DNA from: Schmidtea nova
Taxonomy: Eukaryota
Assembly: GCA_044892505.1 (NCBI GenBank)
Contig: CM097882.1
Location: forward strand, 196,974,001 to 197,038,000
DNA: 64,000 nucleotides
Direction of reading: 5' to 3'
This document shows positions 30,301-60,895 of the stretch, in pieces. How positions within the stretch are numbered: the stretch's first letter is position 1; every line of letters starts with the position of its first letter. A program made the translations under genes and the position numbers. Below the pieces are notes generated by a model that saw nothing but the letters and a program-made list of their open reading frames with translations, was not told the DNA's origin and did not search any database.

Positions 30301-30442
30301 TTCTTTTTTAAACCAATAAAAGTCTTAACTAATAAAAAAAAATTTTTAACTAATAAAAAGAAACATTTTTAACTAATAACAATTCAAATAAATAAAAAAA
30401 AACATTTTTAACTAAATTTTATTAAAATAAATACAAATTTTA

Positions 30443-36240: not shown

Positions 36241-36727
36241 AAAACTCGATCGGGCCGGTTTATCGACTCGAAAAAGGCGTTTGAAGTCTTGTAGTAGGAG
36301 GATGTGAGCGGTCTGCCCCCCCCATGTGTGAACTCATATATTTTTTTATTAAATTTAAAATAAAATTTCATATTTAAAAAAAAATTAAAACAAAAAAGTC
36401 ATATGATTAAAACAAATAGTCCATTTAATTTAAACAAAAATTCACTTAATTTAAACAAAAATTCACATAATTTAAACAAAAAATTCACTCAATTTTAAAA
36501 ATATACGAAATTACGTAATTATACATGGAATTACATAATTATCGGGTTTTATTAAGCACACTTTATCACGTAATGATTACGTAATCACGCGTGCTACATA
36601 AATCCCCGAGCGATTACGTAATATACACACATGGGGGGGTAGTGGCGCAGACTCCTCATAGCCTCCTACTACAAGACTTCAAACGCCTTTTTCGAGTCGA
36701 TAAACCGGCCCGATCGAGTTTTTAGTG
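36236..36727. mobile_element. 492-bp inverted-repeat element (66-bp perfect, ~95-bp imperfect TIR beginning CACTAAAAACTCG)
   Basis: cactaaaaactcg...gtagtaggagg and its exact reverse complement at the right end. No matching TSD. Confidence 0.7.
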
Positions 36728-38847: not shown

Positions 38848-40050
38848 ATGGAACCGATTGTTGTAACTGGCGACCACGCCGAAAATATTCACACAATGAC
38901 GACTCGAGGAGAAGGGAAAAAATCTGCAAGAGACGTACTATCAAAACGTGCTCAAGAACTCTTGGATATGGAAATTAGAAGATACGACGGCAGATGTACC
39001 AAAGAAGCTGAAAAATGGATACATGCAATTGATGATTGGATCGCTAGAAATGACTTAAAGAGGACAGAAGCATTCGATTTTCTCCTTTGCGACGAAGCGG
39101 CTACGCTGTGGAAAAATTTCAAAACAGAAAAAACAACAGATAAAGCAGCTAAAGAATGGTTTTCCGAAACATTTACTATTAAATTGACTATTTTAGACAA
39201 GATTAAAGAACTTGCTGCAATTAGACAAGATGAAAATGAAAGATATGCAACCTTCGAAATCCGGGTATTAAAATTAGTGGATGAAGTTATTAATTCAGGA
39301 ATGAGGGTAGAGGAAATTGCCAATGAAATTATAACTGGACGAGTCAGAGACAGAAGATTAAAAGATGCGCTAACAATGAAACCAACGATGACCACAGAAG
39401 AACGAAATCAACTGGCCAAAATTTAGGAAAAAGTGGAATCAAAAGAAAAGACGGAAGAAATTATGGTAATAAAAAAGAGTAGTTACGCAGAAGCAACAAG
39501 GAGAAGGAATCCAGAAACGTTTACCAGAGAAACAAATGGAAGTAATGGCAATATATTAAGAATCCAAGGAAATTACAGAAGAGAGAATTTACCAGATAAT
39601 TCTTATAGCAGAAATAACGAAATAAATAATACAGTCGAACGGAATATGCAGAGAAGGACACCAACGGTTTCGCTTAAACACATCGCCAAGAGATTATACA
39701 ATCGATCTAGAGGCCTTCCTGATCCAAGAAACGTCGAATTACAGTCAGGTCAATGTTTTTGCTGTGGAGAATATGGGCATAGAAGATATGAATGCCCACT
39801 AAAAGATAAATGTTTGATATGTGGTAAGGGAGGACATAATTTTCGTGATTGTTATTTATTAAGAAAGAAAGAACAGCAGAACTATGAGAACAAGAAAATT
39901 ATATCTTGTGTGCATGATGAAGAAAACGGAAGAAATTACTCCGATGATGCAGAAACCAGAGAATCAATTAGTGATTATGTAATTCATGATGTGGAAACTG
40001 AAAAAAACACGAGGAACTCTATTGCATACATTTCGTCAATGGGGTTGTAA
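38848..40050 (+). pseudogene. Gypsy gag with two CCHC knuckles; in-frame TAG at 39424-39426
   Basis: CFCCGEYGHRRYEC and CLICGKGGHNFRDC; both ORF-track pieces are in the same frame. Confidence 0.85.
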
Positions 40051-40082
40051 AGAAAGAAAATCGGAATGACAGAGCAGAAGGA

Positions 40083-43000
40083 ATGAGGTATGTAACATCA
40101 GATGGAAGAGAATGGAGCAAGATGATGATAAATGATGTTGAGATTGAGATGTTGTGGGATTCTGGAGCTTCGATTACAGTGATGAATGAGGAAACGTGGA
40201 ATAAAATTGGTAGTCCACGGTTAAGCAGTAGTGAAATCAAAATATGTGGAGTTTTTCCAGGAACTCAAAAACCACTGGGATGTACAGAAGCAAATGTTTA
40301 TTGGCACAATAAGATGAGGAGTATCAAAATAATTGTTATTAAAAATATTTTTCCAGGTTTTATTGGTGGGGTAGATACTTTGAAAGCATTTGGAGTGCAG
40401 TTGATGGAAATTAACAATATTGAATCCGAGACAAAAATTAGTAATTATACTGATGAGGAGAGAAGACAAAAAGCAAAAAATGAATTGGGAAAAAATGAAT
40501 TGCCGACAATTAACAAATTATTAGATGAATTCGGGTCAATATTTATGGCAGCTAGATTTGATTTAGGATTCACAAGAATCGTTGAACATGAAATTAATAC
40601 ATCTGGGAATCCAACAATGCAATTTCCAAGACGACAACCGATGCATCTAGAACAGAAAATTGACGATATGATAAAAGAGTTAACAAAAGCTGGAGTTATA
40701 AGACGCTGTAAAAGTCCATGGAGCTCCCCATTAGTCGTAGTGGGGAAGAAAGACGGCTCAATAAGAATGTGCGTAGACTATCGAGAGCTGAATAAGATAA
40801 CAGAAAGAGAATCTTTCCCTATGCCCAACATATCTCAATTACTCGATAACCTATCAGGATCTAAATACTTTTCTTCTTTAGATCTTGGACAAGCATACTA
40901 TCAGGTAGCATTAGCAAAAGAAGCGCAAGAGAAAACGGCTTTTAGTTCCAAAGAAGGTCAATTTTGTTTCAATCGACTTCCGTATGGACTATCAACGGCT
41001 CCAGCAACGTTTCAGCGATTAATGCACACGATGTTAGAGGGTATATTGTTTAATGGAGCAATTGTTTATTTAGACGATATTCTTGTATATGGCAAGGATC
41101 AGTCTGAACATGATGAGCGATTACGAGAAGTTTTTAAAAGAATACAAAAAACAGGACTAAGAATAAATCCGGAGAAGTGCGAAATTTACAAAACAAAATT
41201 AAAATTCCTTGGTTATACCATCAGTGAAGATGGAATACAGACAAATTCAGAGAAGATCAAGTCAATTACAGAAGCGACGAAACCGCAGTGTGCTAAACAA
41301 CTTCAATCATTTCTGGGTTTGACAAATTATTATAGACGATTTGTTAAAGATTATGCTAAAATAGCAGCACCCTTACATGCAGCAGCTTCAGGTTGTGATA
41401 AAACAATCAAATGGTCAGAAAATTGTGAAAACAGTTTTAGTCAGCTTAAAGAAGCCTTAACACAAGCTCCTATTCTTGATTTCCCTCGTATAGATCGGAA
41501 ATTTATTTTGGATACTGATGCCAGTTTTGAGGCTATTGGAGCAGTTTTGAGTCAAATAAAAGAAGACGGTTCAGAAATAGTTATCACATACGGTTCAAGA
41601 AATCTGACGGCCCATGAAAAGGGATACTGCGTAACCAGGAAAGAATTATTAGCGTTACATGAATATGTTTTATATTTTAGACAGTATTTATACGGGAAAG
41701 AATTCGTGGCCCGAACAGATCACAAGGCTTTAGTATTTATGAACACAAACAAAAAAGCAATAAGTCCACAATTTCAGACATGGATGGCTAATCTATCGGA
41801 ATATGACTTCCAATTGAAATACCGGAAAGGTGAAGAACATGCAAACGCAGATGGATTATCAAGGATCGGGGGTAGTTTGTGTGCACAATGTCAGACAGCA
41901 CATGTACAACATAAACAAGAAAGATCAAGGGTAAGATACATCAATTTGATACAAAAAACACATACAATGTTGGAGATTATGGAAGAACAGAAGAAAGATA
42001 AATTGTTCCAGGACGCGATGGAAATTCTTAGGAATCAGATAGATGTTCGAAAGGAATCGTTTCAAAATAGTTTTTTATTCAGATATAAAGATCAGTTAAA
42101 GATATCGGATGATATGCTTGTATTGGAAAAGGACAAAATAGATCTAGTGGTAATCCCAGAAAGCTATCAATCTAAATTAGTGATTAAAATACATGAAGAT
42201 TTATGTCATGTTGGAACTAAGAAACTGTTTCATTATTTGGAAGGGAATTTTTTCTGGCCGAAAATGCAAGAAACCGTTAAATAGATAGTAAAACGATGTG
42301 TCACTTGTGCAAGAAGGAAAATAGACCAAGGAAAGACAAAGGAAATTTTAATTCCACACGAAAGTTCTGAATTTCTAGAACAGATTGTTATGGATGTTGC
42401 TGTCATGGAGAGAACTTCAACAGACAAAAGGTATGTTATCGTTATTATTGATAGGTTTAGTAAATTAGTAAGTCTAACGGCTACAGCAAACCAAGATGAA
42501 AAAACTATTTTGAAGACGCTAATGAACAATTGGATTTACAAATATGGTAAACCTCAAAGTATATTGACGGACAGAGGGCGAAATTTTGAAAGCAAATATT
42601 TGAAGGAAAAATTAGAGCAGCTGGGAATAAAGCAAGAATTCGCAACGCCGTATCAACATCAGTCGAATGGCCTAGTGGAAAGAGCTATCAGAACAATGAG
42701 GGATTTACTTGTGACTACGATGAAAGGTGGCTGTGCTGAAAAACAGTGGCACGAACTGCTGCCTCGAATTGAATTCAGTATTAACGCAACTTATCAAAGT
42801 GCTACAAAATTTTCACCATTTGAGATAGTATATGGACGGAAAATAACATTACATGCTAATTCTAGGCTCAAACATCAAATACGAGATATTTCAGAAGAAG
42901 CACAAACGAATAACAAGCAAGCTGCTCAAAAGATGAGGAAATTCGAGGATGACAAAAGAATTAAACGACATTTTGAAGTGGGGGAGGAGGTACTAGTACG

Positions 43001-43154
43001 ACGAGAACCACATAGAAGAAACAAAAATGATATTCAATATGATGGTCCATATAAAATTCTTAGATTTGTGTCAGATCACCAAGTTGAATTGCAATATCCA
43101 AATACAACGCGACACCGACGAATCGAATGGTTAAAGAGATGGAATCAATTTTAA
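40083..43154 (+). pseudogene. Gypsy pol (PR-RT-RH-IN); -1 frameshift site AAAAAAC at 40002-40008; in-frame TAG at 42282-42284
   Basis: LWDSGAS, YLDDILV, LDTDAS...ELLAL...TDHKAL, IHEDLCH..CVTC, IVMD/TDRGRNF/VER. Confidence 0.92.
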
Positions 43155-46100
43155 GAAGGGGAGAGTAATGATATTGCAATAAAGGCCAAAGACCAAATGT
43201 GAAGCAGTTCAGAGTATATTGCGTAATTCAATCACTGTGTTAGTTATTGCGTAATATACATAACTATTTAAGAGTGATCACTCGGTGTTTTTAGTAAATA
43301 AATCTTTANNNNNNNNNNNNNNNNNNNNNNNNNNNNNNNNNNNNNNNNNNNNNNNNNNNNNNNNNNNNNNNNNNNNNNNNNNNNNNNNNNNNNNNNNNNN
43401 NNNNNNNNNNNNNNNNNNNNNNNNNNNNNNNNNNNNNNNNNNNNNNNNNNNNNNNNNNNNNNNNNNNNNNNNNNNNNNNNNNNNNNNNNNNNNNNNNNNN
43501 NNNNNNNNNNNNNNNNNNNNNNNNNNNNNNNNNNNNNNNNNNNNNNNNNNNNNNNNNNNNNNNNNNNNNNNNNNNNNNNNNNNNNNNNNNNNNNNNNNNN
43601 NNNNNNNNNNNNNNNNNNNNNNNNNNNNNNNNNNNNNNNNNNNNNNNNNNNNNNNNNNNNNNNCGTCTAAATAATACTATAAATTATAAAAATAAAATAG
43701 ATAATTAATAAGACTAAAAAGAAATAAAATACAAATATTTATTGTCATAAATCTTCATCATCATCTTCATCTTCGTCATCTTCTTGAACTTCATCATCAT
43801 CTTCATCATCATCATCTTCGGTAAATGAATCCCCCATAACTGTAAAACTTTCCCTACAATGTCCATAAGCAATACTTTTATTTTTCTCAACCCAAAGTCT
43901 CTTATCATCGAGGTTTGTAAGTGAAATTTTTGAAAACTTATTAGTAAAAATTTGATGATTTTTACTCACAAATCGAGACTGTTAGACTGAAACTATATTA
44001 TTATTTCTATAACAATCAAGATAAGACCGATGCTTCAGTTTAGTATCTTTCAAACAGACGCCTTTAGCATTTAAACATTCCTTATCACCTAAAAGGCTAT
44101 AAAATTTAGGTCTAAGAAAATTCCATTTCTTATATTTATGATACTTATTTTCGTCTTTAAACTTTCCTATAACCGAATCAAGTTTTTTCGAATATAAAGA
44201 ATGACTAGGCTCGTAATTCGATGTATCCAAAAGACAATCTCTAACCATCGCAGGAAACAGAACATCTAACCTACAATTCTTAATCTCTAAGAAGAAAGAA
44301 TCAGTATCGCCTGCAACTATATTAATCTCACAGTTGAATTCATTGCGATATTTTTGCAATTCTTCATACTGGAGTTGATACATCTTAAGTTTCGATAAAT
44401 CTAAAACTGATTGACCTATATAACTCGGTCTGTCTAAACACACAGAGTCTTTATTTAAAAGAACAGAAATCAAGTCATCATCTATCCCATAAGTTTTCCT
44501 GAAAGTTGGTTTCGATGAATAAGTAATCAGTTTCGACGCAGAGTTGCATAGCCTTAAATTTAATCTTTTCTTAAGGTTTTCGACAGTTTTTCCGTAAAGA
44601 CTGTTATTTAACAGCTTATAAAAATCCTTATCTAAAACAAACGATGAAGCTGCCCTAAGTCGTGTATTAGTATCTATATAATCTTTAAATATAGATTTCT
44701 GCTTATATTGAACAGCTCTATGAATCTTTGTTATTTTAACTCCTTAAGAAAGAAATAGTTTTAAAAGTCTCCAACGAAGAACATAATTCTTCTTTGGATA
44801 ATGTGTCAACATTAACTTTTCAACTTTAGATCCTGGAGCACACATTCTTTCTGCCGCTACTGGAAAGTCATTTAATTTGTCGTGAATTTCAACCGGGATT
44901 TCCAAGTCAACTTCAAATGTTACACCGATTGTTAAAACCTCTAAGTCAGCATCCATCAAATTAATTAATTAAATTTATTCTCATCAGTGATCCATTTAAA
45001 TTTACCACAAGGTAACTTTTGGCTTAAGGCCCAACCGTACAAATTATTAATGTCGATGTATAGTAGTTCAGTCGTTTCGGAGGATACTACGTGATGTTTG
45101 TTGACAAATGTCAAACCACCACGGATCCTCCCTTCGAAAAAATTATACATCTCCATATCCTGGAGCAATTCAATAGGTTCTTCCAAGGTAATAAGTGCAG
45201 AAGACCACGACATACCTGGAATACCCAAGAAATTCAATGGTTCTAACCTATTATGAGAAATTGACTTGGCTCTAAACTGTTGAAAGAAGTCAGCAAGAAG
45301 AAAGACGTCAAGTTTTAAGTATATCATCACGTAGTCACAAAGAATTTGACAATTAGTTTCCCTCCAAATAACTAAAGCCTTATCGTATTCAGCCTGTTTA
45401 ACACCCTCCCAGATTGGTGGTAATTCATATGTTTCATTCAAGACTTCTAACGATGTCGCAAAATTATAAGGAAAAATACTCTTACAATCAACAATAGTAC
45501 CAGTGAATTTTGATCGCGTTAAAGGTAAAGAAGTCAATGTTTTAACTGCATCATTTAAACTGGAGTTAATAAACTGACAAGAGTTAATGAATTTAATTGT
45601 TAAAACACCGACTCTTGCAGATAAAGTAAGGAATTTTGCACTGGTTGTAGGAATACAAGATATTTTCAAACTACTAAAGTTAGCCAATCCATATTTAAGA
45701 ATATGATGCATGTCATACCCTTTTAAGTTATGAAAAACAATTGGTAGTTCCTTAAGAATCTGTCTAGTAAGATTACATTTCGAACAAGCAGCACCCAAGA
45801 ATTCACCAGTGTAATGGTCATGATCTCTAACCGGATTAACTAAACGATTTTTACAAAGGTAACAAATAGTAGATGAGGCAAAAGATCTTTTATTATCAAA
45901 TGTCATAAGAAGTGGTTTTTTGTAGTTATTTTTATAAAAATGAAAAACAATTTCTTCACCTATATTGCTAATTTCAGAAAGGAACTTAATTACACAATCT
46001 ATACCTAAGAAACTCTTGTATGTTTTTTCACCAGTAAAGTTCTTAACAAGTAAAAGTCCCGCAGATATAGGTACATGTCTCTGAAAATATTTATCATCAG

Positions 46101-47272
46101 AGGTAAGATCGCCTCAAAATCAGCGTAAACTACAAAAGGCGGAGTAATCGTTTTACCCCAATTACTAAATGTTAAATAAGGGTTTTTAAGTAAAGTATAT
46201 AGAGTTGTGCCTAAATGATTTTTTGAACACAACTCTTGCTGACGAACGAATGAATCTTGATATCTAAACCCATTCAAGCATCGATGACACCATATGCTTT
46301 GAATACTAGTACCAGATATTGATTTATTGTCAAGATTTAAAAGTCTACCAAGATTGGTGACTGCTATATAATGAAAAGAGTCACCATTTTGCAAAAGAAT
46401 CAAATTAATAGGAATTCCGTCTACTACTTTCGACCTATGAATTATATCAATACATGGATGTTTGAAAACTTCAGGCTTAGTGTCTAGAATTCCAGATTCA
46501 TCATATGACAGTACTTTAATCGCATATCCCGGGTTTTTAGCTTCAAACTTTGGGATATTGCAAAGACGCATAGGTAAATCAGAAGGACTAAAGTTAAGAT
46601 CTGAAAGATTATAATTACTGGCCCTATGTCTATTTTTACGAAAAGGTACCTCATCATACTTAATAATTACCAAAACAGAATAGATAAAACACAAGTCATC
46701 AGAATTATGAACATTTACAACACAATGTTTTGACTTTAAAGATTCAGGAGTATCAATACCACCGTAACCTATCAACCTACTAATCTCAGAAAATTTTGTT
46801 AAGATGAAATGAATTTCATTAATTTTATTAATTACCCAATTACTGCCTCTATTATTAATTAATGTAATTTTTTCATTAAGAATATTAATGCCATCGTCTA
46901 AAAAAGTATCTGTGACAGGTTGTGCAGAGTTCGAAATAACTATAGTGTTGGGCCCACCAAATGGTCTAAAAAAGACGAAAATAATTTAATAATTTAAACA
47001 AAAAATACAAATAATAAATACAAAAAACATTGGAAAAACCTAAATTAAAAATCAAAATAAAATAATAAATAATAATAACTAAATTTCCAGCAAAGGAAAA
47101 AAATCAAATTGACACGGGAACGAGCAGCATGGGGGTCTGAAATAAGAAAATTACAAATAAAATCAAATAAGAGTACAATAAATTAGTTAATTACTTGAAA
47201 AATCAGGACCACCCAGTGAGAAACCTGAACCGGAAATTTAAAATGGTTTATATTAAAATAAAATAACAAAGT

Positions 47273-47339
47273 TACTTTGATGGACGGCCTGATCCTGATT
47301 GGTCAATCTGACCAACTGGATCAGTATAAATACCGATCC
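47273..47339 (+). promoter_or_regulatory. CCAAT + IR3 palindrome + TATA promoter cassette of element copy B
   Basis: ATTGG at 47298, GGTCAATCTGACC, TATAAATA at ~47325; identical to 10596-10662. Confidence 0.6.
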
Positions 47340-48410
47340 AAAAATATTAAAAACCGACATAAAAATTTTGATTACCGAACTGATCTATAACAATCGATTC
47401 AGTCACATCAACTTTGTTACGATAAATTTTCGAAATAATTTTTGGGAACGCATCAAACTTGGATCTTAGAGAGTAATTTTTTTTTTATTGTTATTAAAAT
47501 AATTTTTATTACATGTTTCTCATGATTCCCATTTGATTTTATTTTAATATAGTTTATTATGATTAATGAGTTGGTTTATTCTATTATTTTATTTTATAAT
47601 AAATACACTTCCTCAGTAGCTCACGCTGCGAGGGAGTAAGCCGTAAGTGTGGGATTTCACCGTTCCACAAGATGGTGAGCGAAGTTTTTATTGACAGTTT
47701 TATTTTATTTAATTGAGTGCTATCAGAGGTTTACCTTAAAGTAGAGTTGTGCATGGGGCCAGGGTTGTACTTGCAAACAATCAAACAGGAGATCAAACAG
47801 GAGATGTCCAAGAGTAATTAAAATATCATTGATTATATAACTTAACAAATCAGCTAAATCGGTTTCACCTTATGTACATTATGTCGAATCCACACAACTG
47901 CAGCTGATCTAGACAAATAGATGCATCCGGACACACCGAGGAGATTCCGACATTTTAATGAAATTTTTGACTAGGGTATAAATAGTAACATAATCGAATT
48001 TAAATCACAGATTGGATAAATAAAACAGTAACCTGATCGCTGTAAATAGCGCAGGCAATAATATTTGAATTTCTTATAAACGTATCCCGATCGCTGTATA
48101 TAGCGACGGTGTTAAGCGCCCCAAACTGAACTGCTCAATGGCTTGCATCCGACGAGATCCAGTCAATCACGGGTTGCACATTACCCCCGTTCACGGCCTC
48201 CAAGTGAAGCGTTTTCGCTAACAACGTTATTCACACTACTATGAATAAATATGTATCATCAATTAAATGGTGTTGATCTGTCTTTTTGTTTGTTATTAGT
48301 TGAATTTCGATCCATTTATTGATTTAATTATCCAAATCTTTCCACTCGACGGATAGTATTAGCCGTTGGTAGTATAATTTCAGTATCATAAAATAGGTTT
48401 ATTATTTAGT

Positions 48411-49007
48411 ATGACGGAAACCAGCCAACAGCGGGAATTGGATAAGGCGTGGAGAATCCGCCGAGCATTAGAAAAGGAGTTAAATCAAGAAAAAGCATTA
48501 CGGGCTAAGGCAGAAGCTCAGATTCAGTATGTACGAACCAGCTGGTTCGCCCCAGCCCGTATGAAGGAACAGATGAGTCGAACGGAAAGGGCTCAAAAGA
48601 CAGCTGACGATTATCGCACAGAATGGGAAGCAACAAAAATTGAGTTGCGCCGATGTCTCCATTCTGTGACGACTTCTTTCATAGAGTCCGAATTGAGATC
48701 ACAAATCCGACCCATCACCTACCAGAAATGGGTAGGAGAACAGAAGGTGGCCTGCTCGGTCAGTACCGACACCGATGGTCTCGAAGTAACAACAGTACAA
48801 AGTCCGATAGAATCCACCGTTGCACCAAATCCCGTCGGAAAACCGAACAAGAGAAAGCGAATCGGTTCCAAGCGCCGTCGCCAAAGGAAGCTGTTCTCTC
48901 AGCAGCTGCAGGCACAAGTGACCACTATGGCAGAAATGTCGGAAGCCGAGTGGTTATCAGAGATATTCCCTCCGAAGGAATTTTCAAGGAATTTTTGTAG
49001 CAGATAA
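48411..49007 (+). CDS. Orphan 198-aa coiled-coil protein with Arg/Lys-rich C-terminal motif, intact in copy B
   Basis: ATG-to-stop ORF; homolog at 8077-8676 with many substitutions but conserved motifs. Confidence 0.7.
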   Translation: MTETSQQRELDKAWRIRRALEKELNQEKALRAKAEAQIQYVRTSWFAPARMKEQMSRTERAQKTADDYRTEWEATKIELRRCLHSVTTSFIESELRSQIRPITYQKWVGEQKVACSVSTDTDGLEVTTVQSPIESTVAPNPVGKPNKRKRIGSKRRRQRKLFSQQLQAQVTTMAEMSEAEWLSEIFPPKEFSRNFCSR

Positions 49008-50417
49008 AATCATAACATGATGTCAGATCTTGGTGTTGATTAAATATTTGCTTGTTTGTTTTTTTTGTTTGTTATTTCCTATGTATTTCCTTCGGTTACA
49101 CAGTTCATAATAATTAAATTTAAATTACATGTCACACAACGAAAGGAGTAGCGTTAAAAATTTTAAATATTATCGAATTCGTAGTTTCTTTTTGTTTGTT
49201 TTGTTTTTTGATAAATACATAAAATCACAAGTACACCGAATAACAACAATTGCGTAAGTCCTTCTACGGCCGCGTAAACCCGTAAACATAAAGGGGGAGT
49301 AGTCCTAGCAATAGTGCTCACCTGCCCCTCATTGTTTAACCACCCTGCGCATCACCAACTTGGTTATCGGGGGAAATAATCAAGGGCGCTCGAGTGTAAC
49401 TTACGACTATTTGTACATGATCATGAAGGGGAGATCTCTAGCAATCATTAGAATTTTTACTAACCCTTCCATGAACCCAGCAATAGTTTTAAAAGCACCA
49501 TCTTTTTCAAACTCTACTTCGATGCAAAATTGTATTTTAACAGTTCCCATTGTTTCAATTACGTTATTTAATTTATTAATTAAATTAACCAGTACAATCA
49601 TTGTTTTTAAATTCAAGTTAGTGACAATCATTTTCACTATAGCATGTGATTTATTTAAATCAAATTTAACAACAGGTCAAAGAGAACCACCAACCTGTAC
49701 TTCAGGAACTAAAGAGTCTATATCTGATAATTTATCGTCATCGTCAGAAATTTCAATAAAATCAGGAAGAGAACCAACAATTTGAATATTGGAATTATCA
49801 ATTGAACCAGGAACAAAAGAGTTCAACCTCAAAATCAGAAAGATTATTTATATCAGGAATGATATCATCATCAGGAATGATATCATCATCGGAAATTATA
49901 ACTATATCTGAAGGAACAACTGAAGTTACACCTGAAAGAACAACTGGAGGAATATCATCAGAAAGAACTGACTTATTAATTTTGATTGGGTTTGGACTAA
50001 AGTCATTACATTTTCTTTTAAGTGGTAATTTTAAAATAGATTTCTTTGATGTTTTAAATTGATCTAAATGCTCGCAATGAGTCTTGTAAAAATCTATATA
50101 TAAAGATGATGAAGTAGATTTGCAAATAGGGCAAATGTAGTAGTTTTTAAAGTTATGAGGGTATGCATAATATCTTTCCATTATTTCATGACATTTTAAA
50201 TCATGAATTGTAGAGTTGCAATAATTTTGATATAAATTACCTATAATTTTAAAAAAATTATAAAAAAATTATGATAAAATAACAATGATGTATATATTAA
50301 GTGTGTATACACACATTCATTTCAAAATATCGTAATATATATTTATTGATATGATTGGTTAAATAAATTCCAAAAGTTCTATATAAACGAATTATAAAAT
50401 TAATATAATCATTAAAA

Positions 50418-50645
50418 ATGTATCAACTGAAAAGTAAGATTAATTAATATTAAATGATTATTTTTAAATTTCTTTTTCTAGAATCGAAAAGAATGACAAA
50501 ACAAGAAATAATGAAGATTATTCTTGAAGAAAATCCTAATTCAACATCTAATTTGGTATTGAATCCACCAGTTCAATTCTTGCAATACTCGATAGAGTAT
50601 TTGAAATACCCGATCAGAACACAGAAGGTAAAATACCGTTTTTAG
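50418..50645 (+). CDS. Small Polinton-2 gene with a predicted 48-nt intron (50434-50481), truncated by the Penelope insertion
   Basis: ATG TAT CAA CTG AAA A|gtaaga...ttctag|AA TCG gives MYQLKKSKRMTKQEIMK... in frame. Confidence 0.4.
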
Positions 50646-51049
50646 ATACCATAGTAAGTTTCACAAAAGGCCAAGATACACTAAATGCAAACACCGAGCT
50701 ATATTCTAAAAGTTTACATAGCGGTCATATCCTCCCATGGAAAAGCCACGTTCCACTTCAACGCAAAATCGCATTACTAATAGGAGAAAGAAAAAGAGCC
50801 ATAAGAAACTGTTCAGACGCAAACAAAATATAAGAAACATTAGAAAACTTCAAAATACGATTCCTCCAAAATGGATACCTTGAAGACTTTGTAAAGAAAC
50901 ACTTCCTTAACGAACCATACCACAATAAACGCAACAATAGAAAACGCCAGAAACACAATAACAATAACAAACACACAACATATCTAAGATTACCTTTCCT
51001 AAATGACACTACAGCCAACAAAATCACCAACATTTTTAATCAAACAGAT

Positions 51050-51466
51050 TTGCCTATCCACATCCGTCCAACGTTCATAACCTCCGCACCGTTAAAATCA
51101 CAACTCCGAAAGCCACCAATTTCCAACATCTCCAAACATAAATGTCTTTGCCGTTCCACAACCCGATGCTTTTGCTTTTCCAAAAATATAGTATATAAAC
51201 TTTCTTGCCAAAAATGTGACGCTACTTACATAGGAGAAACACATAGAACTTTTCGCACCCGACTTAATGAACACACTAAAATCAATACCAGTAATTATTA
51301 CGAACACTGGGAGAAAGTACATAAAACAACTCCATCTATAGAAGAAACAAAATGCCAGATTCTACAAGAGGGATTCAAAAATTCATTACAAAGATTAGCT
51401 TCCGAGACTTTTTTCATAAAAAAATACAAACCGTCCATCAACATTCAATTCACACAAAAAAATTAA
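51050..51466 (+). CDS. GIY-YIG endonuclease domain of the Penelope-like element
   Basis: IVY...CxxC...YIGET..RLNEH motif. Confidence 0.85.
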   Translation: MPIHIRPTFITSAPLKSQLRKPPISNISKHKCLCRSTTRCFCFSKNIVYKLSCQKCDATYIGETHRTFRTRLNEHTKINTSNYYEHWEKVHKTTPSIEETKCQILQEGFKNSLQRLASETFFIKKYKPSINIQFTQKN

Positions 51467-51555
51467 AATAAATTTTTTCATCCAATAAAATCATTATAAA
51501 ATATTAAAAAAATAATTAAGGCTACTATTTAGGATTAAGTAAATATAACGATAGA

Positions 51556-51597
51556 AATACACACTTGATAAAGGCTGTGCCGAAATATTGTGTTATT
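51556..51597 (+). ncRNA. Minimal type-I hammerhead ribozyme candidate with U3-A8 core variant
   Basis: acac-UUGAUAA-a-GGC tgt GCC-GAAA-UAU-U-gtgt: stem I acac/gtgt, 3-bp stem II, palindromic AUAU stem III. Confidence 0.65.
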
Positions 51598-52199
51598 GTT
51601 TATAAAAAAATTTGATCTATAGTCATTATGAGAATTATTGATAATAATAATAAAAAAAGATCAAAGGTGAAAAACGATAATTATGATAGTTATTAAATTG
51701 TTAATAATAAAAAATTAATATAAAAATAATATAAAAATGTGGCAATTATAAAATATATTTAAAGAATTAAATTTAAAAAAATGTAAAAAAAATAATCATT
51801 TATTAAATTTTTATAATATAAAAAATACTCACATTTATTCATAGAAAATTTCTTTGGCATACTGTTCTTCTTATTCGTTGGCATATTATTCATATTCATA
51901 TTTTCTATATCTGCAAATAAAAATAAAAATATATTTATAAAAAATAAACATGCTTACTAAAGTTGGCTTGTTGTTAAAATTGTCATTTATTTAAACGAAA
52001 TATTTTTAAAAATAGTAATATAATTCAATTTAATTTAAAATAATTTAAATGTCGATTATTTAAAAATAATTAATTTTCGTTTAATCATTATTTAATTAAA
52101 TATTTTTCAATATGTAATTAAAAATATTTTCAACTATAATTTAACAAAAATAATTCAAACATAAATGGAAAAAGTCGAAATCTTTTTATAATAAAAATT

Positions 52200-52577
52200 T
52201 TACTTCATATATTTTAGCCATGCTAAACAATGTTGTCCACAGGTTTTGTCATAGGATTTTGATACCGAATTCTGTTATATTCTATTGGCTTTAACAATGA
52301 CGATAATTTTTTCAACAATATCGGCGGATAATAGAATCCCATTGGATCAAACACGTATATTTTATCGGGTTTATTATAAATTGCAAGCCAATGTTCACCT
52401 TTGAGATTTGATGATTGAGTATTGACAATCAAAGCCTTATTCACATGTATATACGGTATTTTATCTAGAGGGAAAACTCCTAGAAATTCCGATCCAATCA
52501 ATTTTCTAGCAATTTGATCTATCTGAATTGAACTAAAATCAATAAAATTTAATTTTTAAAAATAAATCTTACTTCAT
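52200..52577 (-). pseudogene. Adenain-like cysteine protease, 40-nt intron (52533-52572), frameshift just before the catalytic QxxxTCG motif
   Basis: Spliced MNSIQIDQ..FLGVFPLDK, GEHWLAIY, FDPMG, YQNPMT; CGQHC lies in a shifted frame. Confidence 0.85.
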
Positions 52578-52608
52578 TTAATTTTTAATTAATTATAATT
52601 AGTTTATA

Positions 52609-53829
52609 TTAAACGAGTATTGTTCGATTAGATGTAATTTGTAATTCCTTTTCAAAAACTCCATATACAATTACAGAAACCGATTCAGTCAATGGTGTGC
52701 CAAATTTAATATCAAGTCTTAGATTACCTTGTTGAGGTAATTGACTTTGATTTAGATCAAAATCTGGAGCCAAAACAAAAGTGAAAAAAAGGATATTTGG
52801 TTTTCCAATCTGATAAAGAAATACCGCAATTCATACTCTTATTCAGGTAACTAAGGTTACGGATAATAGATTGCATATAACTAGTATTGCAATTATCATT
52901 TTCAAAATCTTGAGAATATTTTTCACGATAATCACTTCCTTTCGATAAAGTTAAAGATTTGACATTAAAATGATCGTAAATAGAATAAGTTTCAGTAAAT
53001 GAACCACTATGTCTCTTATTTCCTTGAAATGCTACAAGAATAAAGTTTGGTAATCGTCTATCTCCAAAGATTTGTTCCTTATAAAACGAAGAAGAACCCA
53101 TTGGCAATAAAAATTCTACAACTTCCTTCTTTTTTATTGGATAAATTGCAATTCTTGTACCAAGTCCAATTTGATGCCCTGCCAAAACTGATGGTTCAAC
53201 TCGAACTCTTCTAACCATTAATTTTCCCTCTAATAATTCAATTATAGGTTCAATTTCTGTACATGTTAAACTATCGGATGGATTTGATCTCGTCAATTTA
53301 ATTTGAACACTAACACCTGGTAAAAAATATTTGGGTTGTTCCATGAAATCGAAATGTAATGGAGAACAAATTGAAAATGGTTTTGATTTTGCAATCCATG
53401 CTTTTCTAGTAAGATCATGGTCATTGTATCCCATTGGAGTTAAAGATGTGTGTTTTGTATCACTATTGTAGTTGAGAATAGTTTCAATCATGGCTTTGTG
53501 TGTAAATGTATCATTTCCCCCTTCTACTTTAGTAGAATTGAAAATTAATTCGGCTTCTTTAAAAAGAGTTTAAAAAAAGAAATTGTTGGGAGTAACATCT
53601 GCATCCAATCCTAAATTTTCACCTGATTTGTTTACAACCTTAACCTGAAGAGATAGTAAAGTATCGTTCAAATCTAAATATTCAGTTTGAGATCCGTTGA
53701 TGTAAAATTGAATAGATGATGTCCCAGCATCTGTAATTGAATTTGTAATGTAAATATCTTCAAATGCACCATGTTCAATTACTGCTTGTGGAGACGGTCT
53801 ATCAAATATTCAGATTTTGCACTAATCAT
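52609..53829 (-). pseudogene. Double-jelly-roll major capsid protein (Polinton PY/hexon-like), with frameshifts and one stop
   Basis: SKSE..FD..QAVIE, YLDLNDTLLSLQVKV, PLHFDFMEQPKYFLPGV, RLPNFILVAF, QGNLRLDIKF are typical of Polinton MCPs. Confidence 0.85.
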
Positions 53830-54233
53830 TTTTCGAATATTGTTCCATATTCTTTCATTCTTTTGTTTATATGTTTCTTTATATTTCTTTTACGTTTAAG
53901 AATTCCGCCATTTTGTTTATTTTCAGTTTTATTTTCGTTAACCACATCAGTCACTTTATTAATTACTTGTGGTAAATGATGAATCACATCAGGTAATGAA
54001 TCTTTAATTTCAGAAATGGCATTGGATTTTAGTGCAGGTAAAATCTTTGAATTATTATTTAACACATCATTGGCAGTTTCATACCAAAAATTTCCAATAC
54101 GTCTAAGAATTGGTAATGCAAATCTACCTATTGTTTTCAACCAACCAGTTCCATATTGCTTACCTACAAAATACGGTAATTCTCCACCTGATTGACGGTT
54201 GCTATAGAAACGGATAATATCTGTATTATTCAT
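53826..54233 (-). CDS. Polinton virion core/membrane-active protein with QxGG/QxGxG motifs and an amphipathic helix
   Basis: RQSGGELPYFVGKQYGTGWLKTIGRFALPILRRIG; basic C-terminus; stop overlaps the MCP ATG. Confidence 0.65.
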   Translation of the reverse strand: MNNTDIIRFYSNRQSGGELPYFVGKQYGTGWLKTIGRFALPILRRIGNFWYETANDVLNNNSKILPALKSNAISEIKDSLPDVIHHLPQVINKVTDVVNENKTENKQNGGILKRKRNIKKHINKRMKEYGTIFEK

Positions 54234-55236
54234 TTATTTTACGGAAATGTAATGTCAAGTAAGTCTTGTCTTCTTTTGCAAATTTAACTATTTTTCCACT
54301 GTCATCACGAATATTGATTTCAATATTGTTTATATATGTGGAACTGACCGGTAAATACATTGAATTTTTCGTAACAATTTGAACCAAATCACCCTTTTTA
54401 TGTTTTTCAATCCAAACACATTTCAATAGGGGAACTGACATGTCACCAACAAGAATTGGTTGAATAATATTCGTATAGATGAACATTTGTTGATGAAGTT
54501 TTAAAACTTGTGGATAATATACACCATCAATTATTTTGTCAAAGAATTCTTGTTCAATTAATCCTAACTAATTTACTAAATTCATACTAAATTTTATACT
54601 AGTTATATCATCTTCAAGAATTAATTTTCCTTCTTTAATATCAACCACTTTAAATGGATGTCGATAAAAAGTTTCAATTTGATCCGATAATTCAGTAAGA
54701 TTACTTATTATTAAATCATCTTTGAAATTATCTGTGTATTCAACAAGATAAGTATAAGTTATAGTAAATCGTATAGTATCATCAAGTTTTTTATTTTCAT
54801 TTGCAGGAATTTCAATTTTGTGTAATTCATCATTAAATGACACAGCTTTTTCTTGAAACCCTAATTTTTTAGCTTCTTCAACACTTTCAAATATTATTTG
54901 AAATGGAAAATATTTACAATTTACATTTAAAATATTGCCATCAATATACATCATATAATAATTAGAATCGTGACTTATTTCATATTTATTCTTTTGCTGG
55001 TTAAAATTGAAATATTCATAACTAGAATGTAATTCACTTCTAGTAAATTTTATACTTGAATTATTATAAAACGGAAATTCATTGTATACAAAAGTAAAAT
55101 CCATAAGAGCAACTTCCCAACTACTATCCAAATAAATTGGGTTTTGATATTCAACATTGAATTTTCCAGCTTTATTATTGGGATGTGTCAATGGGCAAGA
55201 ATTACTAGGTAAATTAACATAAAAATCTTTTTTAAT
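54226..55236 (-). pseudogene. Minor capsid protein (penton) paralog 1; in-frame stop at 54568-54570, start codon reads ATT
   Basis: FYVNLPSNSC..PNN..F.VE..NPIYL..WEVAL N-terminus and MFIYTNIIQP.LVGD..VPLL..YLTLHFR C-terminus. Confidence 0.8.
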
Positions 55237-56806
55237 CTTTTATTTTACGAAAATGTAGAGTCAAATGAGTCTTTGTATCTTTTGAAAATTTAATTAATTT
55301 TCCACTGTCATCACGAACAGCGCTGTGCTGTAACTTTTGGGGGCCCTGTGCAGAAACTAAAAAAATATTTTTTTTAAATTTGAATTAATATTTTATTGAT
55401 TTAAAAAAAAATAATACAAAGCATTTATAAAGTAATTTTTCTAGCTTTTTTGCTGGCAAATTCATTATTTATATCATTGTAATCAATTGCTCTGGCTGTT
55501 GCATTTCCAATCGGCAGTATTGCAAATCCAGGAAGTCTTTCCTGTGACATTGTAGACCGTAGATAATTTTCAATTAATTTTATTTTTGAAAACGATCGTT
55601 CACAATGAGCAAAGGTAAAATGGGTACTGTTAAAATTATTCGATATGTGATACATACATTTGGATCTAATTCTTCCAAACTTCTTTCTAAAATGTATTCC
55701 AAATTCTCCATAATAGTATAATTATCTTCTAAAATATATTTTTTCTAATGGAGAAGTTTTTCCAATGTATTTTATATTTGGGGGCCCTTCAAAAATAGGA
55801 AGCCCAGTGCCATTACACTTGTTGCACTTGCGATAGTACGGCGCTGATCACGAATATTGATTTCAATGTTGTTTATAGTTGATGTTGAAATCGGCAAATA
55901 CATTGGATTCTTTATTTCAATTTGTACAACTTCACCTTGGTCATATTTCTTGATCCAAATTGATTTTAGGAGGAGAACTTGTACATCTCCAACAGTTACT
56001 GGTTCGATAATGTTGATGTAAATGAACATTTGCTGATGAATTTGTAAAATTTTGGGAACTTTTACACCGATTATTTCTGTATCAGTATATGTTTGTTTCT
56101 GTAGACCCAGAGATTTGGTTAAATTTGAATCAAAAGTAATTTTTGAAATATTATCACGAAGAATAATTTTAACCAATTCATTATTGTCAAGTTTCATTTC
56201 TTTAAATGAAGATGGATTAATTTTCATTAAATATCCTTGCAATTCCGGTAATGACGTTATGAATAATTCTTCTTGAAAATAATAATCATTAACAGTTTTA
56301 ATGTCATAATTTAATAAAATTCCAAATTGTTCAACACTATTATCATTCGTGAATTTTGGTGATTTTAAGCGATAATGATCATTTTCACTTGTAATTGTGG
56401 TATTTTTCAATCCAAAACTTTTTGCATGTTCAAGATCTGGAAATGTAATTTTATATGGAACATGTGGACAAACAATCACTAAATAATTATATTTTTCAAT
56501 AAATACATCAGTGTCTGAACTAGGTTGAGAAACTATAACTTGAAATGTTTTATTTTGATTATTAATTCTTAAATAACTAATTTCTTGAATTTCTCTTTTA
56601 GTTTCAATTTGAATAAAAGAATTACTATAATACGGGAACAAATTATACACAAAAGTAAAATCAATCAAAGCAACTTCCCAATCGTCATTACTATTTAAAT
56701 AAATCGGATTTTGAAATTCTACATTAAAATTACTAGCTTCATTATTAGGATAAATAAGAGGACATGCATTGCTAGGCAAAATCATATAAAACTGGTTTTC
56801 TTTCAT
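55234..56806 (-). pseudogene. Minor capsid protein (penton) paralog 2, interrupted near its C-terminus by a hAT element
   Basis: FYMILPSNAC..WEVAL and MFIYINIIEPVTVGDVQV..IEINIRD; the sequence resumes DSGKL beyond the insertion. Confidence 0.82.
55318..55846 (-). mobile_element. Non-autonomous hAT element (529 bp) retaining the transposase C-terminal dimerisation domain
   Basis: Perfect 8-bp TSD ATCACGAA; TIR cagcgctgtgct / agtacggcgctg; CERSFSKIKLIENYLRSTMSQERL. Confidence 0.9.
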
Positions 56807-56819
56807 AATATTTATTTAA

Positions 56820-57900
56820 TCAATTGTTTTTCAGATATCCAACTTGGAGTTTCATAGCCATGCCATTTAACGTAATATTGTTTATATTTCCCATCAGTTT
56901 TGGTTTTTAAAATCTTTTAAATTCAAAATACTGTGGGAGCTGGAATAACTTGAAGTTATTGTTCGTAGAATTTACCCTCGATTACATTGTTTTCATGATC
57001 GGAAATAGTATACATGATAGGATTTTGATTAGTATCAACATTTGAGATTTGATATACTTCATCACTCTAATTACAATCAAAATTTTTGATGAAGGGAGAA
57101 GCACTGATTTTACTCATTCTCACATAATCACCTACTTTATATTTGGGTTTTTTATTAATTGATTTTAATCTATCTTCTATTCACCCATAAAAATTATTAT
57201 TTGAATATACATCGATAGGTTTCATTCTATTTAATCCCGAATGCGGTGAACGATTGTAACTGGAAATAATTTTCGGTAAAACATTTATCCATGTTTTGTT
57301 ACCTTGATACACAAAATACTTTTTCAAACGATCTCTTAAAGTACGATTAAATCTTTCAACATGAGCAACTTTGAATTGAGACAATACAGAATAATGATTG
57401 ATTTCTTTGATCACTTCTTTTACTTTGCTGTTATAAAACTCTTTTCCTAAATTAAAATTAATTAATTAAAAAATTTAATTTAATTTCTTACCCAAATTAG
57501 TTTGTAAATTACGTGGCTTCCCATCTTTAAATAAAGTTTAAATAACATCAGCCATTTCATTAGCAGATTTAGTTTTTGTTGGAATAGCTCGTGCATAACG
57601 GCTAAAAACATCAATACAAGTCAAACTATATTTGTAACCCTTGTTAATTTTAGAATAAGGGATCATTTCCATCAAATCCATTTGCCATAAATCATTACCC
57701 CCAAAAGTTTTATATTTCCGTGTAGGAAATCTTTTCAGCATTGGTTTATTTAAACTATATGCCAATTGATCAGATAACCATTTCTGAGTTTCATTCTTTG
57801 ATCTTTTTATTCTTTTTGCCAATTTTTTGACTGAACCAAAACCATTGGGATCTTTTGGGTTTGTCCATATCGTTTTTATATTCTTCATGATTTTCTTCAT
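56820..57900 (-). pseudogene. Polinton retroviral-type (rve) integrase with C-terminal chromodomain-like segment; 45-nt intron 57447-57491; several stops
   Basis: LWQMDL, CIDVFSRY, spliced LQTNLG|KEFYN, VERFNRTLR, YYVKWHGY..SWI. Confidence 0.88.
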
Positions 57901-57962
57901 TAATACAACAATTTGTTAAAATATTTAAATCTATATTATGTTTATTCGGTTGAGAAATTTTA

Positions 57963-58291
57963 TTACTTATTTCTTAAAGAAGAAATTGCGCTTATTGCTG
58001 ATAATACTATTGGAATTAATGTACCGAGAAATCCACCCTTTTGTTTATATATTATTTTTTGCATAAGATTTCTATTTTTGGTATTCACTAACGATAAAAG
58101 CGAATTTTATGTTTTTGCAGTTCAATTTTCTTTGATCTACTAATATTTACATTACCATGAACAATATTAAAAATGATTTCAAGTAAATCATCAATAACAA
58201 AGGGTGGGAAAGCTTGTAAAATCATCATTCGCTTATTAGTTGGAGCTTTAACCAAAGCATTAAAATACGGTAAACTACGTTCAAATTTCAT
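57963..58291 (-). pseudogene. Polinton core protein with adenovirus pX/mu-like C-terminus (one frameshift)
   Basis: Shifted frame gives KQKGGFLGTLIPIVLSAISAISSL, resembling adenoviral pX GG-(I/F)LPxLIPxIAAAI. Confidence 0.6.
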
Positions 58292-58312
58292 GATTAAGAT
58301 TTTTGTATATAT

Positions 58313-58513
58313 TTATTTCGCTTTACTTGTTTCTTTACTTGTTTCTTTTACTTGTTTCTTTCTTTTATCAACCTTTTTGACAACTTTTTTAACTAATTTA
58401 GGTTTTTGATCAACTTTTTAAATTAGTTTTTGATCAAATTTTTTAATTAGTTTTTGATCAGCTTTTTGAACAGCTTCTTTATTTAACTTGACAATTACTT
58501 TTTTAAAGGACAT
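58313..58513 (-). pseudogene. Lys-rich repetitive basic protein (putative DNA-condensing), one internal stop
   Basis: MSFKKVIVKLNKEAVQKADQKLIKKFDQKLI*KVDQKPKLVKKVVKKVDKRKKQVKETSKETSKAK. Confidence 0.45.
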
Positions 58514-58534
58514 TATTATTTCATTTATTTGTTT

Positions 58535-59155
58535 TCAATTTTGTTTATAAACCGTGACTCCTTTTTCGTTAAATATATCCGTTCGGATACGTAAATCATC
58601 AGGACATTGTTGAGTAAAATCAAAGAATAAATATCCATGAGGAACTTTAGTAGAATCTTGAAATGAATTAATTAAGAATTTCCTATCATTAGGGCAAGCT
58701 TGTCTTGCTAGAAAATCAATAATTGTAGCATCTCTTGGGTGTTTGAATATAACCAAGTATTGAACATTTAAATTACGGGTTCTGTGACCGCCTTGATAAA
58801 ATAAATTTTGAGTAATGAAAATTACAGTAACTCCTAAATGTCTACTAATTTTTGTGAATACATTATTAAAATCTTTTTCTTTATTTGCTTCTTGATACAA
58901 ATCATCGATAATTATAACATCGCCTTGACGTAATCTAGATGACCAGTTTTTATCAAACCCTTTTATAATTGTCATTTTTAATTTTCAGAATTGATCTTGA
59001 GTCAGTCCATGTTCTTCATCAGCTCCTCTATGCCAGTAAATTTTATTGAATTTAGATTTAAACATTTTTGATTGCAACAATTTACATACAAATAAAGTTT
59101 TTCCACTACCACTCGGTCCCACTATTTGATAAACTTTATCATTTCTTAATTCCAT
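58535..59155 (-). pseudogene. A32/FtsK-like packaging ATPase; stop and frameshift at ~58980-58997
   Basis: Walker A VGPSGSGKT (upstream piece), Walker B IIIDD, SRH...ITQNLF, PHGYLFFD. Confidence 0.88.
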
Positions 59156-59211
59156 TTTTATTTAATTAATTAGTTATTTTAATATAGTTTATATTTATTC
59201 AATTTATACAA

Positions 59212-59691
59212 ATGATAAGTAATATTAATTATAAGGGCAAGTGTTTAGTTCCAAACATGATATTTCCTGTTGGAAAACCACAGCAAGTTATAGATAGTAC
59301 CGGGAAGTACCCTATTTTATTTTTCAGATCGGGAAAATGTCGTGTAATGGGTTGTAAGCAACCGTTAAAACCAGATGATTTGAAATATAAAATTTCGGAT
59401 TTAAAAATTCAATCGATCACTATAACATTGGATATGGGTAAAACCATAAATTTATACGACTTGCAAAATAAAACAGAGGGCTGGTACGAACCTGAAATAT
59501 TCCCAGCTTTGAGATTAATAAATTATAACCCAATTTGTATTAATATTTTTTCAAGTAGAAAAGTTGTAATATTAGGAATTAAAACATTGGATTATTTTAA
59601 TCAAGTAAATGAAATTAAAAATTATATTAATTCATTAATCTATAATGAATTAAATGATGAAGAATTTCTCGATTTATTATTAAATATTTAA
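59212..59691 (+). CDS. Divergent TATA-binding protein (TBP)-fold protein, intact ORF inside Polinton-2
   Basis: Two TBP-repeat ends: ILFFRSGKCRVMGCK and KIQSITITLD..INLYDL..WYEPEIFPAL..CINIFSSRKVVILGIK (compare TBP YEPELFPGL..LIFVSGKVVLTGAK). Confidence 0.8.
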   Translation: MISNINYKGKCLVPNMIFPVGKPQQVIDSTGKYPILFFRSGKCRVMGCKQPLKPDDLKYKISDLKIQSITITLDMGKTINLYDLQNKTEGWYEPEIFPALRLINYNPICINIFSSRKVVILGIKTLDYFNQVNEIKNYINSLIYNELNDEEFLDLLLNI

Positions 59692-59736
59692 TTTTATTTA
59701 AATAAATTGTTATTTAACAAATCTATATTTTTGAAA

Positions 59737-60126
59737 ATGTCTAAAAGTAAGTATTATTTTTTAATTATCTATATTATTATTATTTTTTATTTAGCTTTTT
59801 TATTTGAAGTGATCCTGAAGAAAATTCAAGAATTATATCCAAAAATAAAAAATTCTTTGGATTACTGTGCACCCGAGTTATTTATTCATAAAATATACAA
59901 ACTTACTGGGATCAATATCGAACAATTGCTTGAGCTTCATTATGATATGGTTCTCGGATCAAATGCTAAATGCGTTGAAAATTGTATAGTTTGTGAAGAT
60001 TCGATGAGAGTATCCTGTGTAAACGGATGTGCATGCTGTCACGATTTTAAAAGAGATCATTCGGTGCATATCTTAATGACCGAAATGCGTAAAGCATATT
60101 ATAACGACATTTATAATTTAGAATGA
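59737..60126 (+). CDS. Polinton-2 Cys/His-rich hypothetical protein with a predicted 48-nt intron (59747-59794)
   Basis: ATG TCT AAA A|gtaagt...atttag|CT gives MSKTFLFEVILKK; CVENCIVC..SCVNGCACCHD..H cluster. Confidence 0.55.
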   Translation: MSKSKYYFLIIYIIIIFYLAFLFEVILKKIQELYPKIKNSLDYCAPELFIHKIYKLTGINIEQLLELHYDMVLGSNAKCVENCIVCEDSMRVSCVNGCACCHDFKRDHSVHILMTEMRKAYYNDIYNLE

Positions 60127-60649
60127 AGTTTTATGATTTACTTGCTCTTTATTTTTATTTTCAAAGTTTTNNNNNNNNNNNNNNNNNNNNNNNNNNNNNN
60201 NNNNNNNNNNNNNNNNNNNNNNNNNNNNNNNNNNNNNNNNNNNNNNNNNNNNNNNNNNNNNNNNNNNNNNNNNNNNNNNNNNNNNNNNNNNNNNNNNNNN
60301 NNNNNNNNNNNNNNNNNNNNNNNNNNNNNNNNNNNNNNNNNNNNNNNNNNNNNNNNNNNNNNNNNNNNNNNNNNNNNNNNNNNNNNNNNNNNATAAAAGT
60401 TTTTAAAATTAACTTCCTTTAAAAAATNNNNNNNNNNNNNNNNNNNNNNNNNNNNNNNNNNNNNNNNNNNNNNNNNNNNNNNNNNNNNNNNNNNNNNNNN
60501 NNNNNNNNNNNNNNNNNNNNNNNNNNNNNNNNNNNNNNNNNNNNNNNNNNNNNNNNNNNNNNNNNNNNNNNNNNNNNNNNNNNNNNNNNNNNNNNNNNNN
60601 NNNNNNNNNNNNNNNNNNNNNNNNNNNNNNNNNNNNNNNNNNNNNNNNA

Positions 60650-60895
60650 AGACTTCATTTTAACAAAATAAAATAAATAGACTTCATTTAAACAAAATAA
60701 TAAAAAACCACTTCATTTAAACAAAATGGAAAATTAAAAAATTCACTTCATTTAAACAAAATAAAAAATTAAAATTAATTCCTTCATTTAAACAAAAATT
60801 TTATTAAAAATTAAAAACAAGAACAGGGGGGGGGTAAAAAAATGTTTAGGGAGGGGGTCTGTTCCTGTTCTTGGGCGCTCCCCCTACTCTACTCT
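60650..60895. repeat. Polinton-2 right terminal region: cttcatttaaacaaaa repeats, G-tracts, terminal ctactctactct
   Basis: Direct reading; AG/AGT-type termini are typical of Polintons. Confidence 0.6.

Follow-up and report, generated by a model that had tools for sequence, protein, structure and literature searches.

A decayed Polinton/Maverick element in the window analyzed here (the whole 64,000-nucleotide stretch of Schmidtea nova DNA, G000:C1:196974001-197038000, from a genome of 1.25 Gb) belongs to a clade in which short GT-AG inserts are fixed at the same places in the integrase, the protease, the 5' end of the polymerase, and two accessory genes. On comparative sequence evidence these inserts are probably spliceosomal introns, and the element is predicted to be transcribed in the nucleus and relieved of them by the host spliceosome, a reading to which we give a probability of about 0.9. 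The element likely needs host splicing to spread, and such dependence is unusual for a group described as intron-free in its core genes. The original prediction, made from this single copy, had proposed an intron-rich lineage that acquired introns and came to rely on host splicing. Comparison among copies supports the acquisition and makes the reliance probable; "intron-rich" was an overstatement, since the predicted introns number six or seven and are confined to the genes named above, and "intron-bearing" describes the clade better.

Inserts in the integrase and protease genes

The integrase (Pfam rve/rve_3; 173 homologs) lies on the reverse strand. Exon 1 (57492..57900, start approximate) was delimited by Pfam rve and tblastn, and exon 2 (56816..57446) carries five premature stops in the window copy. 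Between them, within the second catalytic motif, is a predicted phase 1 intron of 45 nucleotides (nt) containing two in-frame stops (57447..57491). When two uninterrupted homologs from public assemblies (61 and 65% identical) were aligned by tblastn, the match ran end to end with a single gap of exactly 15 codons at the insert, which sits inside a motif that uninterrupted homologs read QTDxGKEF. The insert was present in 29/29 other integrase loci aligned, as was the protease insert in 29/29 other protease loci; both sets are best matches and hence skewed toward close copies. Genome-wide, a pattern for the integrase site with 34 to 64 free bases gave 10,654 matches, of which 10,347 (97%) were GT..AG, and reversed controls gave 1 and 0. 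The uninterrupted motif, searched with a pattern one base longer than the insert-bearing one, had 164 matches, chiefly in one young family (family C; the window copy is of family A) with open frames of 366 amino acids (aa). These motif counts, like those for the protease below, are lower bounds and do not count whole elements.

Integrase inserts are 40 to 48 nt long, and 77 of the first 100 matches listed are not multiples of three. Among 51 sampled inserts, 48 contain an in-frame stop, one more shifts the frame, and 2 could be read through. Both flanking exons are nevertheless open at 23/29 family A and 27/30 family B loci (one A locus was off pattern). Purifying selection acts on both exons: among 12 subfamily representatives drawn from the 51 and picked for open exons (59/66 pairs with a synonymous divergence, dS, above 0.3 in exon 2), the median ratio of nonsynonymous to synonymous substitution (dN/dS) was 0.15 for exon 1 and 0.12 for exon 2, with maxima of 0.31 and 0.19. 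In the same representatives the intron interiors were 0.68 identical, compared with 0.64 for shuffles. Because selection maintains an exon that lies behind a stop or frameshift, the insert must be removed.

In the adenovirus-type cysteine protease gene, also on the reverse strand, a predicted phase 2 intron of 40 nt (52533..52572) follows a coding exon of only 5 nt, from which the start codon comes. Exon 2 (52200..52532; Pfam Peptidase_C5, 1.6e-5 on the family B open reading frame [ORF]) is broken in frame near its 3' end in the window copy. The insert measured 35 to 41 nt in 78 locus matches (some overlapping), the integrase-intronless family included, and without exception it comes two bases after the start codon, in proteins that share about 60% identity. 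The corresponding pattern gave 8,635 matches genome-wide and 0 in the control, and a protease match lay within the 10 kb fetched for 33/40 sampled diverse copies. In many families, TATAAA-like motifs directly precede the protease start.

Comparison of copies thus upheld the places, GT..AG ends, and lengths (45 and 40 nt) first proposed for these two inserts. It also upheld the expectation that splice signals would be kept while the interior drifted freely: the GTAAG-type donor and a pyrimidine-rich 3' end are conserved, and lengths and interiors vary. Neither of the outcomes named in advance as fatal, that the inserts would be unique to this decayed copy or missing from intact ones, was found; young copies whose exons are open carry the inserts, and the copies that carry them exceed 10,000 overall.

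All four inserts in the window (40 to 48 nt) start with GTAAG and end with TAG. A match in size to host introns, as originally claimed, holds in that the ranges overlap (35 to 54 nt for the element; 45, 53, 45, 59, and 54 nt in a tetraspanin-like host gene and 45 nt in EED, read by eye in the window); element introns are slightly shorter and more AT-rich (0.90, versus 0.67 to 0.83 in host introns). The tetraspanin-like gene had no Pfam match and takes its name from the original prediction.

With uninterrupted metagenome homologs as queries against the 51 copies, no shared insert was found in the major capsid (43 copies covered), packaging ATPase (50), minor-capsid-like (45), or TBP-like (46) gene, and the identical comparison detected the integrase insert in 50/51.

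Polymerase and accessory genes

Accessory gene X, a Cys-rich gene on the forward strand (59737..60126), has a predicted phase 1 intron of 48 nt at 59747-59794, and accessory gene Y, on the same strand, is visible as exon 1, a predicted phase 1 intron of 48 nt (50434-50481), and part of exon 2 (50418..50616). Both inserts had been noted from the window alone, and both begin with GTAAG and end with TAG as proposed. The gene X insert is in frame and free of stops in the window and so, taken alone, proves nothing. Across 47 matches, with proteins 23 to 92% identical, an in-phase acceptor with a GTAA donor 35 to 54 nt upstream was found in 44. Gene Y occurs in families A and B only, where it lies antisense within the long predicted polymerase intron, and in other copies it has a second predicted intron.

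The protein-primed DNA polymerase (pPolB) occupies the reverse strand, with a main exon that includes an endonuclease-VII/HNH-like domain (43802..50240) and is broken in the window copy by stops, frameshifts, and a 2.5-kb insert at 46947-49482. A long predicted phase 1 intron (50241..51832; 142 to 1,847 nt in other families) separates it from a predicted short leader exon (51833..51910), upstream of which is a 47-nt intron (51911..51957) possibly in the 5' untranslated region; the leader and this upstream intron are among the least certain parts of the model. The main frame begins at an AG|G acceptor in 42/49 matches, and 5/7 misses are second, offset matches at loci that have it. A Cys/His-rich conserved peptide lies between the acceptor and the first Met, and 25 of those 42 matches have a phase 1 donor upstream, at a distance of 142 to 1,847 nt. 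In one metagenome contig (L255 12500-12938), three short GT-AG introns are apparent by eye upstream of the polymerase frame.

Window polymerase fragments matched Pfam DNA_pol_B_2 (8.6e-16 and 1.2e-7) and Endonuclease_7, the latter domain at window 44965-46113; for the 1,298-aa family B polymerase ORF the only Pfam match was Endonuclease_7 (E 0.01). An endonuclease-VII/HNH-like domain has been reported for nematode and oomycete pPolB2 (PMC10748475), and group 2/Alpha adintoviruses are described with a PolB of the pfam03175-matching (Alpha) class and an N-terminal OTU-like domain (PMC8502044). A PF03175 match was obtained on the window polymerase fragments and not on the family B ORF, with zero OTU matches.

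Probable order of the intron gains

In a quick integrase tree of 71 rows, the 12 intron-bearing sequences formed one clade (Shimodaira-Hasegawa-like approximate likelihood ratio support, 97) nested among uninterrupted relatives, with family C adjoining it. Family C, intronless in the integrase, has the protease intron. This sister family resides in the same genome. Among 38 metagenome contigs, the integrase site was uninterrupted in all 32 that cover it. Of six metagenome proteases, 4 (two nearly identical) carry a GT-AG insert of 37 to 47 nt in the corresponding position, and the other 2, more distant, have a Met start in register that overlaps the capsid stop. Protease homologs in a protein collection, inspected by eye, included 8/25 whose N termini run on as hydrophobic sequence up to the acceptor position, a result to be expected if a prokaryotic gene caller reads through an intron, and 6 with clean in-register starts. 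A scan of viral contigs with a close homolog gave 8 pattern matches and 0 relatives.

Since the protease intron occurs in contigs whose integrase is uninterrupted, gain appears to have been stepwise, protease before integrase. The comparisons suggest that the protease intron is the older and is present outside this genome and that the integrase intron was a later single gain; loss of the integrase intron in family C is a conceivable alternative.

Weighing the evidence

Several observations weigh against removal by the host spliceosome. A branch-point motif was present in 15/28 introns versus 11.3 +/- 2.5 in shuffled sequence, which is no enrichment, and two protein searches found no protein at least 85% identical spanning a junction. 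The young uninterrupted-integrase family (164 motif matches) shares the genome and might, in principle, be a source of integrase in trans. The integrase tree is midpoint rooted, has no bootstrap, and treats the families without a recombination test. For the polymerase, a Met 18 to 20 codons past the acceptor is conserved in 41/42 matches, so that the leader exon may be dispensable for making the enzyme; in 17/42, no donor fitting the strict pattern was found. With this downstream Met also conserved, the polymerase intron is the least certain.

The inserts could also be recent arrivals and not long-established features of the element. In dinoflagellates, 25% of viral elements are reported to contain mobile introners, most of which inserted after integration (PMC11957031), and the integrase and protease introns of family B do resemble one another (z 2.8). 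The other comparisons run the opposite way: 13/14 within-element comparisons had z below 2, no trace of an introner family was seen, and the inserts keep to constant positions, without scatter, from family to family and in the outside contigs. Recent insertion is thus very improbable here; an ancient introner origin is conceivable.

Decay would explain the inserts if they were private to a dead copy, or if dead nonautonomous families were mobilized in trans by an intronless helper. The window copy is indeed broken in most genes, and an integrase-intronless family with open frames exists. Yet the inserts are common to more than 10,000 copies, exon 2 behind the stop or frameshift is under purifying selection between families at a dS of about 1, and the supposed helper family itself carries the protease intron, so that we give this explanation hardly any credence. 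Ribosomes might also hop over the inserts, shift frame, or translate the two halves separately. Such bypass, conceivable given the virus-style overlap of genes, is scarcely credible when insert lengths in different families represent each of the three phases, conservation is confined to the GT(A)AG and TAG ends, the pattern repeats in four genes, and the integrase break lies within the catalytic core.

Persistence of the introns

In the mechanism that we propose, the host spliceosome would remove the inserts so that the element can make its enzymes. The introns would have been gained singly in a replicating lineage, that of the integrase at a latent G|GT donor-like codon; many uninterrupted relatives read GGT AA at this site, a latent donor. 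An origin of the integrase intron by tandem duplication was considered and rejected, no residual similarity to the flanking exons being found (mean z, -0.4 and 0.7). Copied as DNA by its own polymerase, the element would pass its introns on, because DNA copying offers no RNA step to purge them. A stop or frameshift arising inside an intron would then lock it in and make it obligatory.

Such neutral lock-in is, by our assessment, somewhat more probable than not as the reason for persistence and is favored over selection for splice-gated control, which we regard as possible but rather unlikely. More tentative still is a broader scenario of a splicing-gated Polinton lineage, in which polymerase, integrase, and protease would sit behind host-spliced introns with the structural genes left free and intron retention would be a switch thrown by host or element; it would combine stepwise gain, with the capsid under selection, with one of the largest animal Polinton expansions and relatives in unrelated environmental samples.

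Comparison with known elements

Introns are ordinary in nuclear DNA viruses and DNA transposons, which makes this clade a variant of a known theme. Adenoviruses are nuclear relatives that have pPolB and the same protease family and rely on host splicing, and a very small upstream exon encodes the first residues of their polymerase, a parallel to the predicted leader exons of the present clade. Adenoviruses do not integrate, and they splice long leaders onto late genes, whereas the introns described here are short, host sized, and within enzyme genes.

The element shares with animal Polintons/Mavericks (adintoviruses and those of vertebrates and Caenorhabditis) inverted termini starting from AG, a 6-bp target duplication, pPolB, an rve integrase, an A32-type ATPase, an adenovirus-type protease, a double jelly-roll capsid, and a protein-X-like gene. 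It differs from them in its TBP-like gene, its more than 10,000 copies, and its predicted introns in integrase, protease, and polymerase, core genes that are reported as intronless in that group. Specifically, 134 intact elements with intronless ORFs were described, in agreement with Kapitonov and Jurka 2006 as cited there (PMC8097293); elsewhere core genes were intronless and introns occurred in cargo genes only (10.1101/2022.07.12.499685), and together the two sources cover vertebrate and nematode Mavericks. In the former, GeneWise "introns" were taken as signs of decay and only intronless elements were called intact (PMC8097293). The present clade breaks this working rule, and because the rule is built into annotation, active intron-bearing lineages may have been miscounted as fossils.

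Dinoflagellate Maverick-Polinton-like elements resemble this clade in harboring spliceosomal-type introns inside Polinton-like proviruses (PMC11957031) and differ in that theirs are mobile introners, in contrast to the few fixed positions, selection on exons, and lack of repeated intron sequence seen here. Ginger1 DNA transposons likewise have retroviral-type integrase genes, replicate as DNA, and carry 1 to 4 GT-AG introns at conserved positions, without a polymerase or capsid (PMC2836005); a DNA transposon with introns in its integrase-type gene is thus not new per se. A Polinton clade with fixed core-gene introns was not found in the literature searched; Repbase entries, most subscription papers, and supplements, where such introns may already be annotated, lay outside that search. 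No relevant passages on introns or splicing were found in PMC10748475, PMC8502044, PMC4028283, PMC11131425, PMC6431247, PMC5718144, 10.64898/2026.10.13.758929, or 10.64898/2026.07.28.741278, and those in PMC12220804 concerned group I introns only.

If spliced as predicted, the introns are direct evidence for expression of these elements in the host nucleus. Their successive gains could also be dated, in a virus-like lineage whose intronless sisters permit comparison, and spliced versus retained forms would be a simple readout of when and where Polintons are active. Polintons of one planarian are piRNA targets that are de-silenced in differentiation, and such transcripts can be assayed (PMC8532177). 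The clade is a major component of the genome, its copies numbering more than 10,000 at a density of roughly one per 120 kb.

Element anatomy and palindromic derivatives

The element occupies the window from about 60,893 leftwards. From that end the order is terminal repeat, gene X, TBP-like gene, packaging ATPase, core-like genes, integrase, two minor-capsid-like paralogs, PZ-like ORF, major capsid, protease, gene Y, and pPolB, with neighboring genes overlapping virus-style; no helicase was seen. The visible part of this family A copy spans 43664..60893 on the reverse strand; one terminal repeat ends at 60893, and the other end lies outside view in the window. Other copies are about 14 to 15 kb long with inverted termini, which measured 1.1 to 1.4 kb in 4/4 family B elements compared, and have AGTAG termini (AG...CT ends), of which the window copy shows one end only. 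The 6-bp target duplication was perfect in 6/6 elements tested (3 of family B, 2 of family C, and 1 polymerase-only palindrome). The window copy is a fossil, with stops or frameshifts in most genes and three secondary insertions.

The double jelly-roll major capsid gene (52609..53826, reverse strand, intron-free) has one stop and one frameshift in the window copy. The predicted model of the family B capsid ORF (score, 61.5 by the predicted local distance difference test) folds as a double jelly-roll, with best Foldseek matches to the capsids of Sputnik, SGIV (iridovirus), PBCV-1, and mavirus (E ~1e-13); sequence searches of Pfam, PHROGs, and PDB profiles for the capsid were blank, and the identification comes from the fold search. 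A small conserved ORF overlapping its neighbors (53826..54233, reverse strand) we take to be PZ-like from its position; this gene had a 28- to 80-nt insert in 9/40 copies. Next are two paralogous, intron-free genes of about 340 aa (54226..56815, reverse strand), likely minor capsid genes judging by position, for which Pfam and PHROG searches gave zero matches. This gene is doubled in families A and B (paralogs 41 to 44% identical); family C and the metagenome contigs have one copy. Beyond the integrase lie a basic core-protein-like ORF and a protein-X-like ORF (57950..58520, bounds approximate, reverse strand; Pfam Adeno_PX on the family B ORF), the intron-free packaging ATPase (58535..59158, reverse strand; Pfam Pox_A32, 2.1e-6 on the family B ORF), with one stop in the window copy, and an intron-free TBP-like gene of about 150 aa on the forward strand (59212..59691; Pfam TBP, 7.9e-13), which is retained in 46/51 copies and in 4 metagenome contigs.

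A hAT-type insertion (55318..55846, strand not assigned; weak Pfam Dimer_Tnp_hAT match) interrupts the first minor-capsid-like paralog, is private to the window copy, and is missing from 6/6 other copies. A Penelope-type (GIY-YIG) insertion (50617..51700, forward strand) is likewise private to it. The insert within the polymerase gene at 46947-49482 is a repeat whose coiled-coil-like ORF (48378-49007) had zero Pfam matches; an inverted relative of the repeat lies near 8 kb (window 7,400-11,400).

Two palindromic derivatives were observed. In one, of family C (loci L199-L204; e.g., G000:C1:17,243,500-17,257,750), a single protease at the center is flanked on both sides, in mirror image, by the ATPase, core genes, integrase (intronless), one minor-capsid-like gene, PZ-like ORF, and major capsid; the derivative has AGTAG ends and 6-bp duplications, and no polymerase ORF was seen inside. 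Its copies are near-identical, and many of the integrase matches are inverted pairs about 7.25 kb apart. In the other (window 30,000-36,700; loci L205-L207), a polymerase with two predicted 5' introns is mirrored around a 144-bp tandem-repeat center, again with AGTAG ends and a 6-bp duplication, and no capsid module was seen. The pair hints at complementary, segment-like elements, although their termini differ. Elsewhere in the window are two Gypsy-type long terminal repeat retrotransposons (38,725-43,308 and 20,650-25,770) and, within a long EED intron, Penelope-type end fragments (4,017-4,811).

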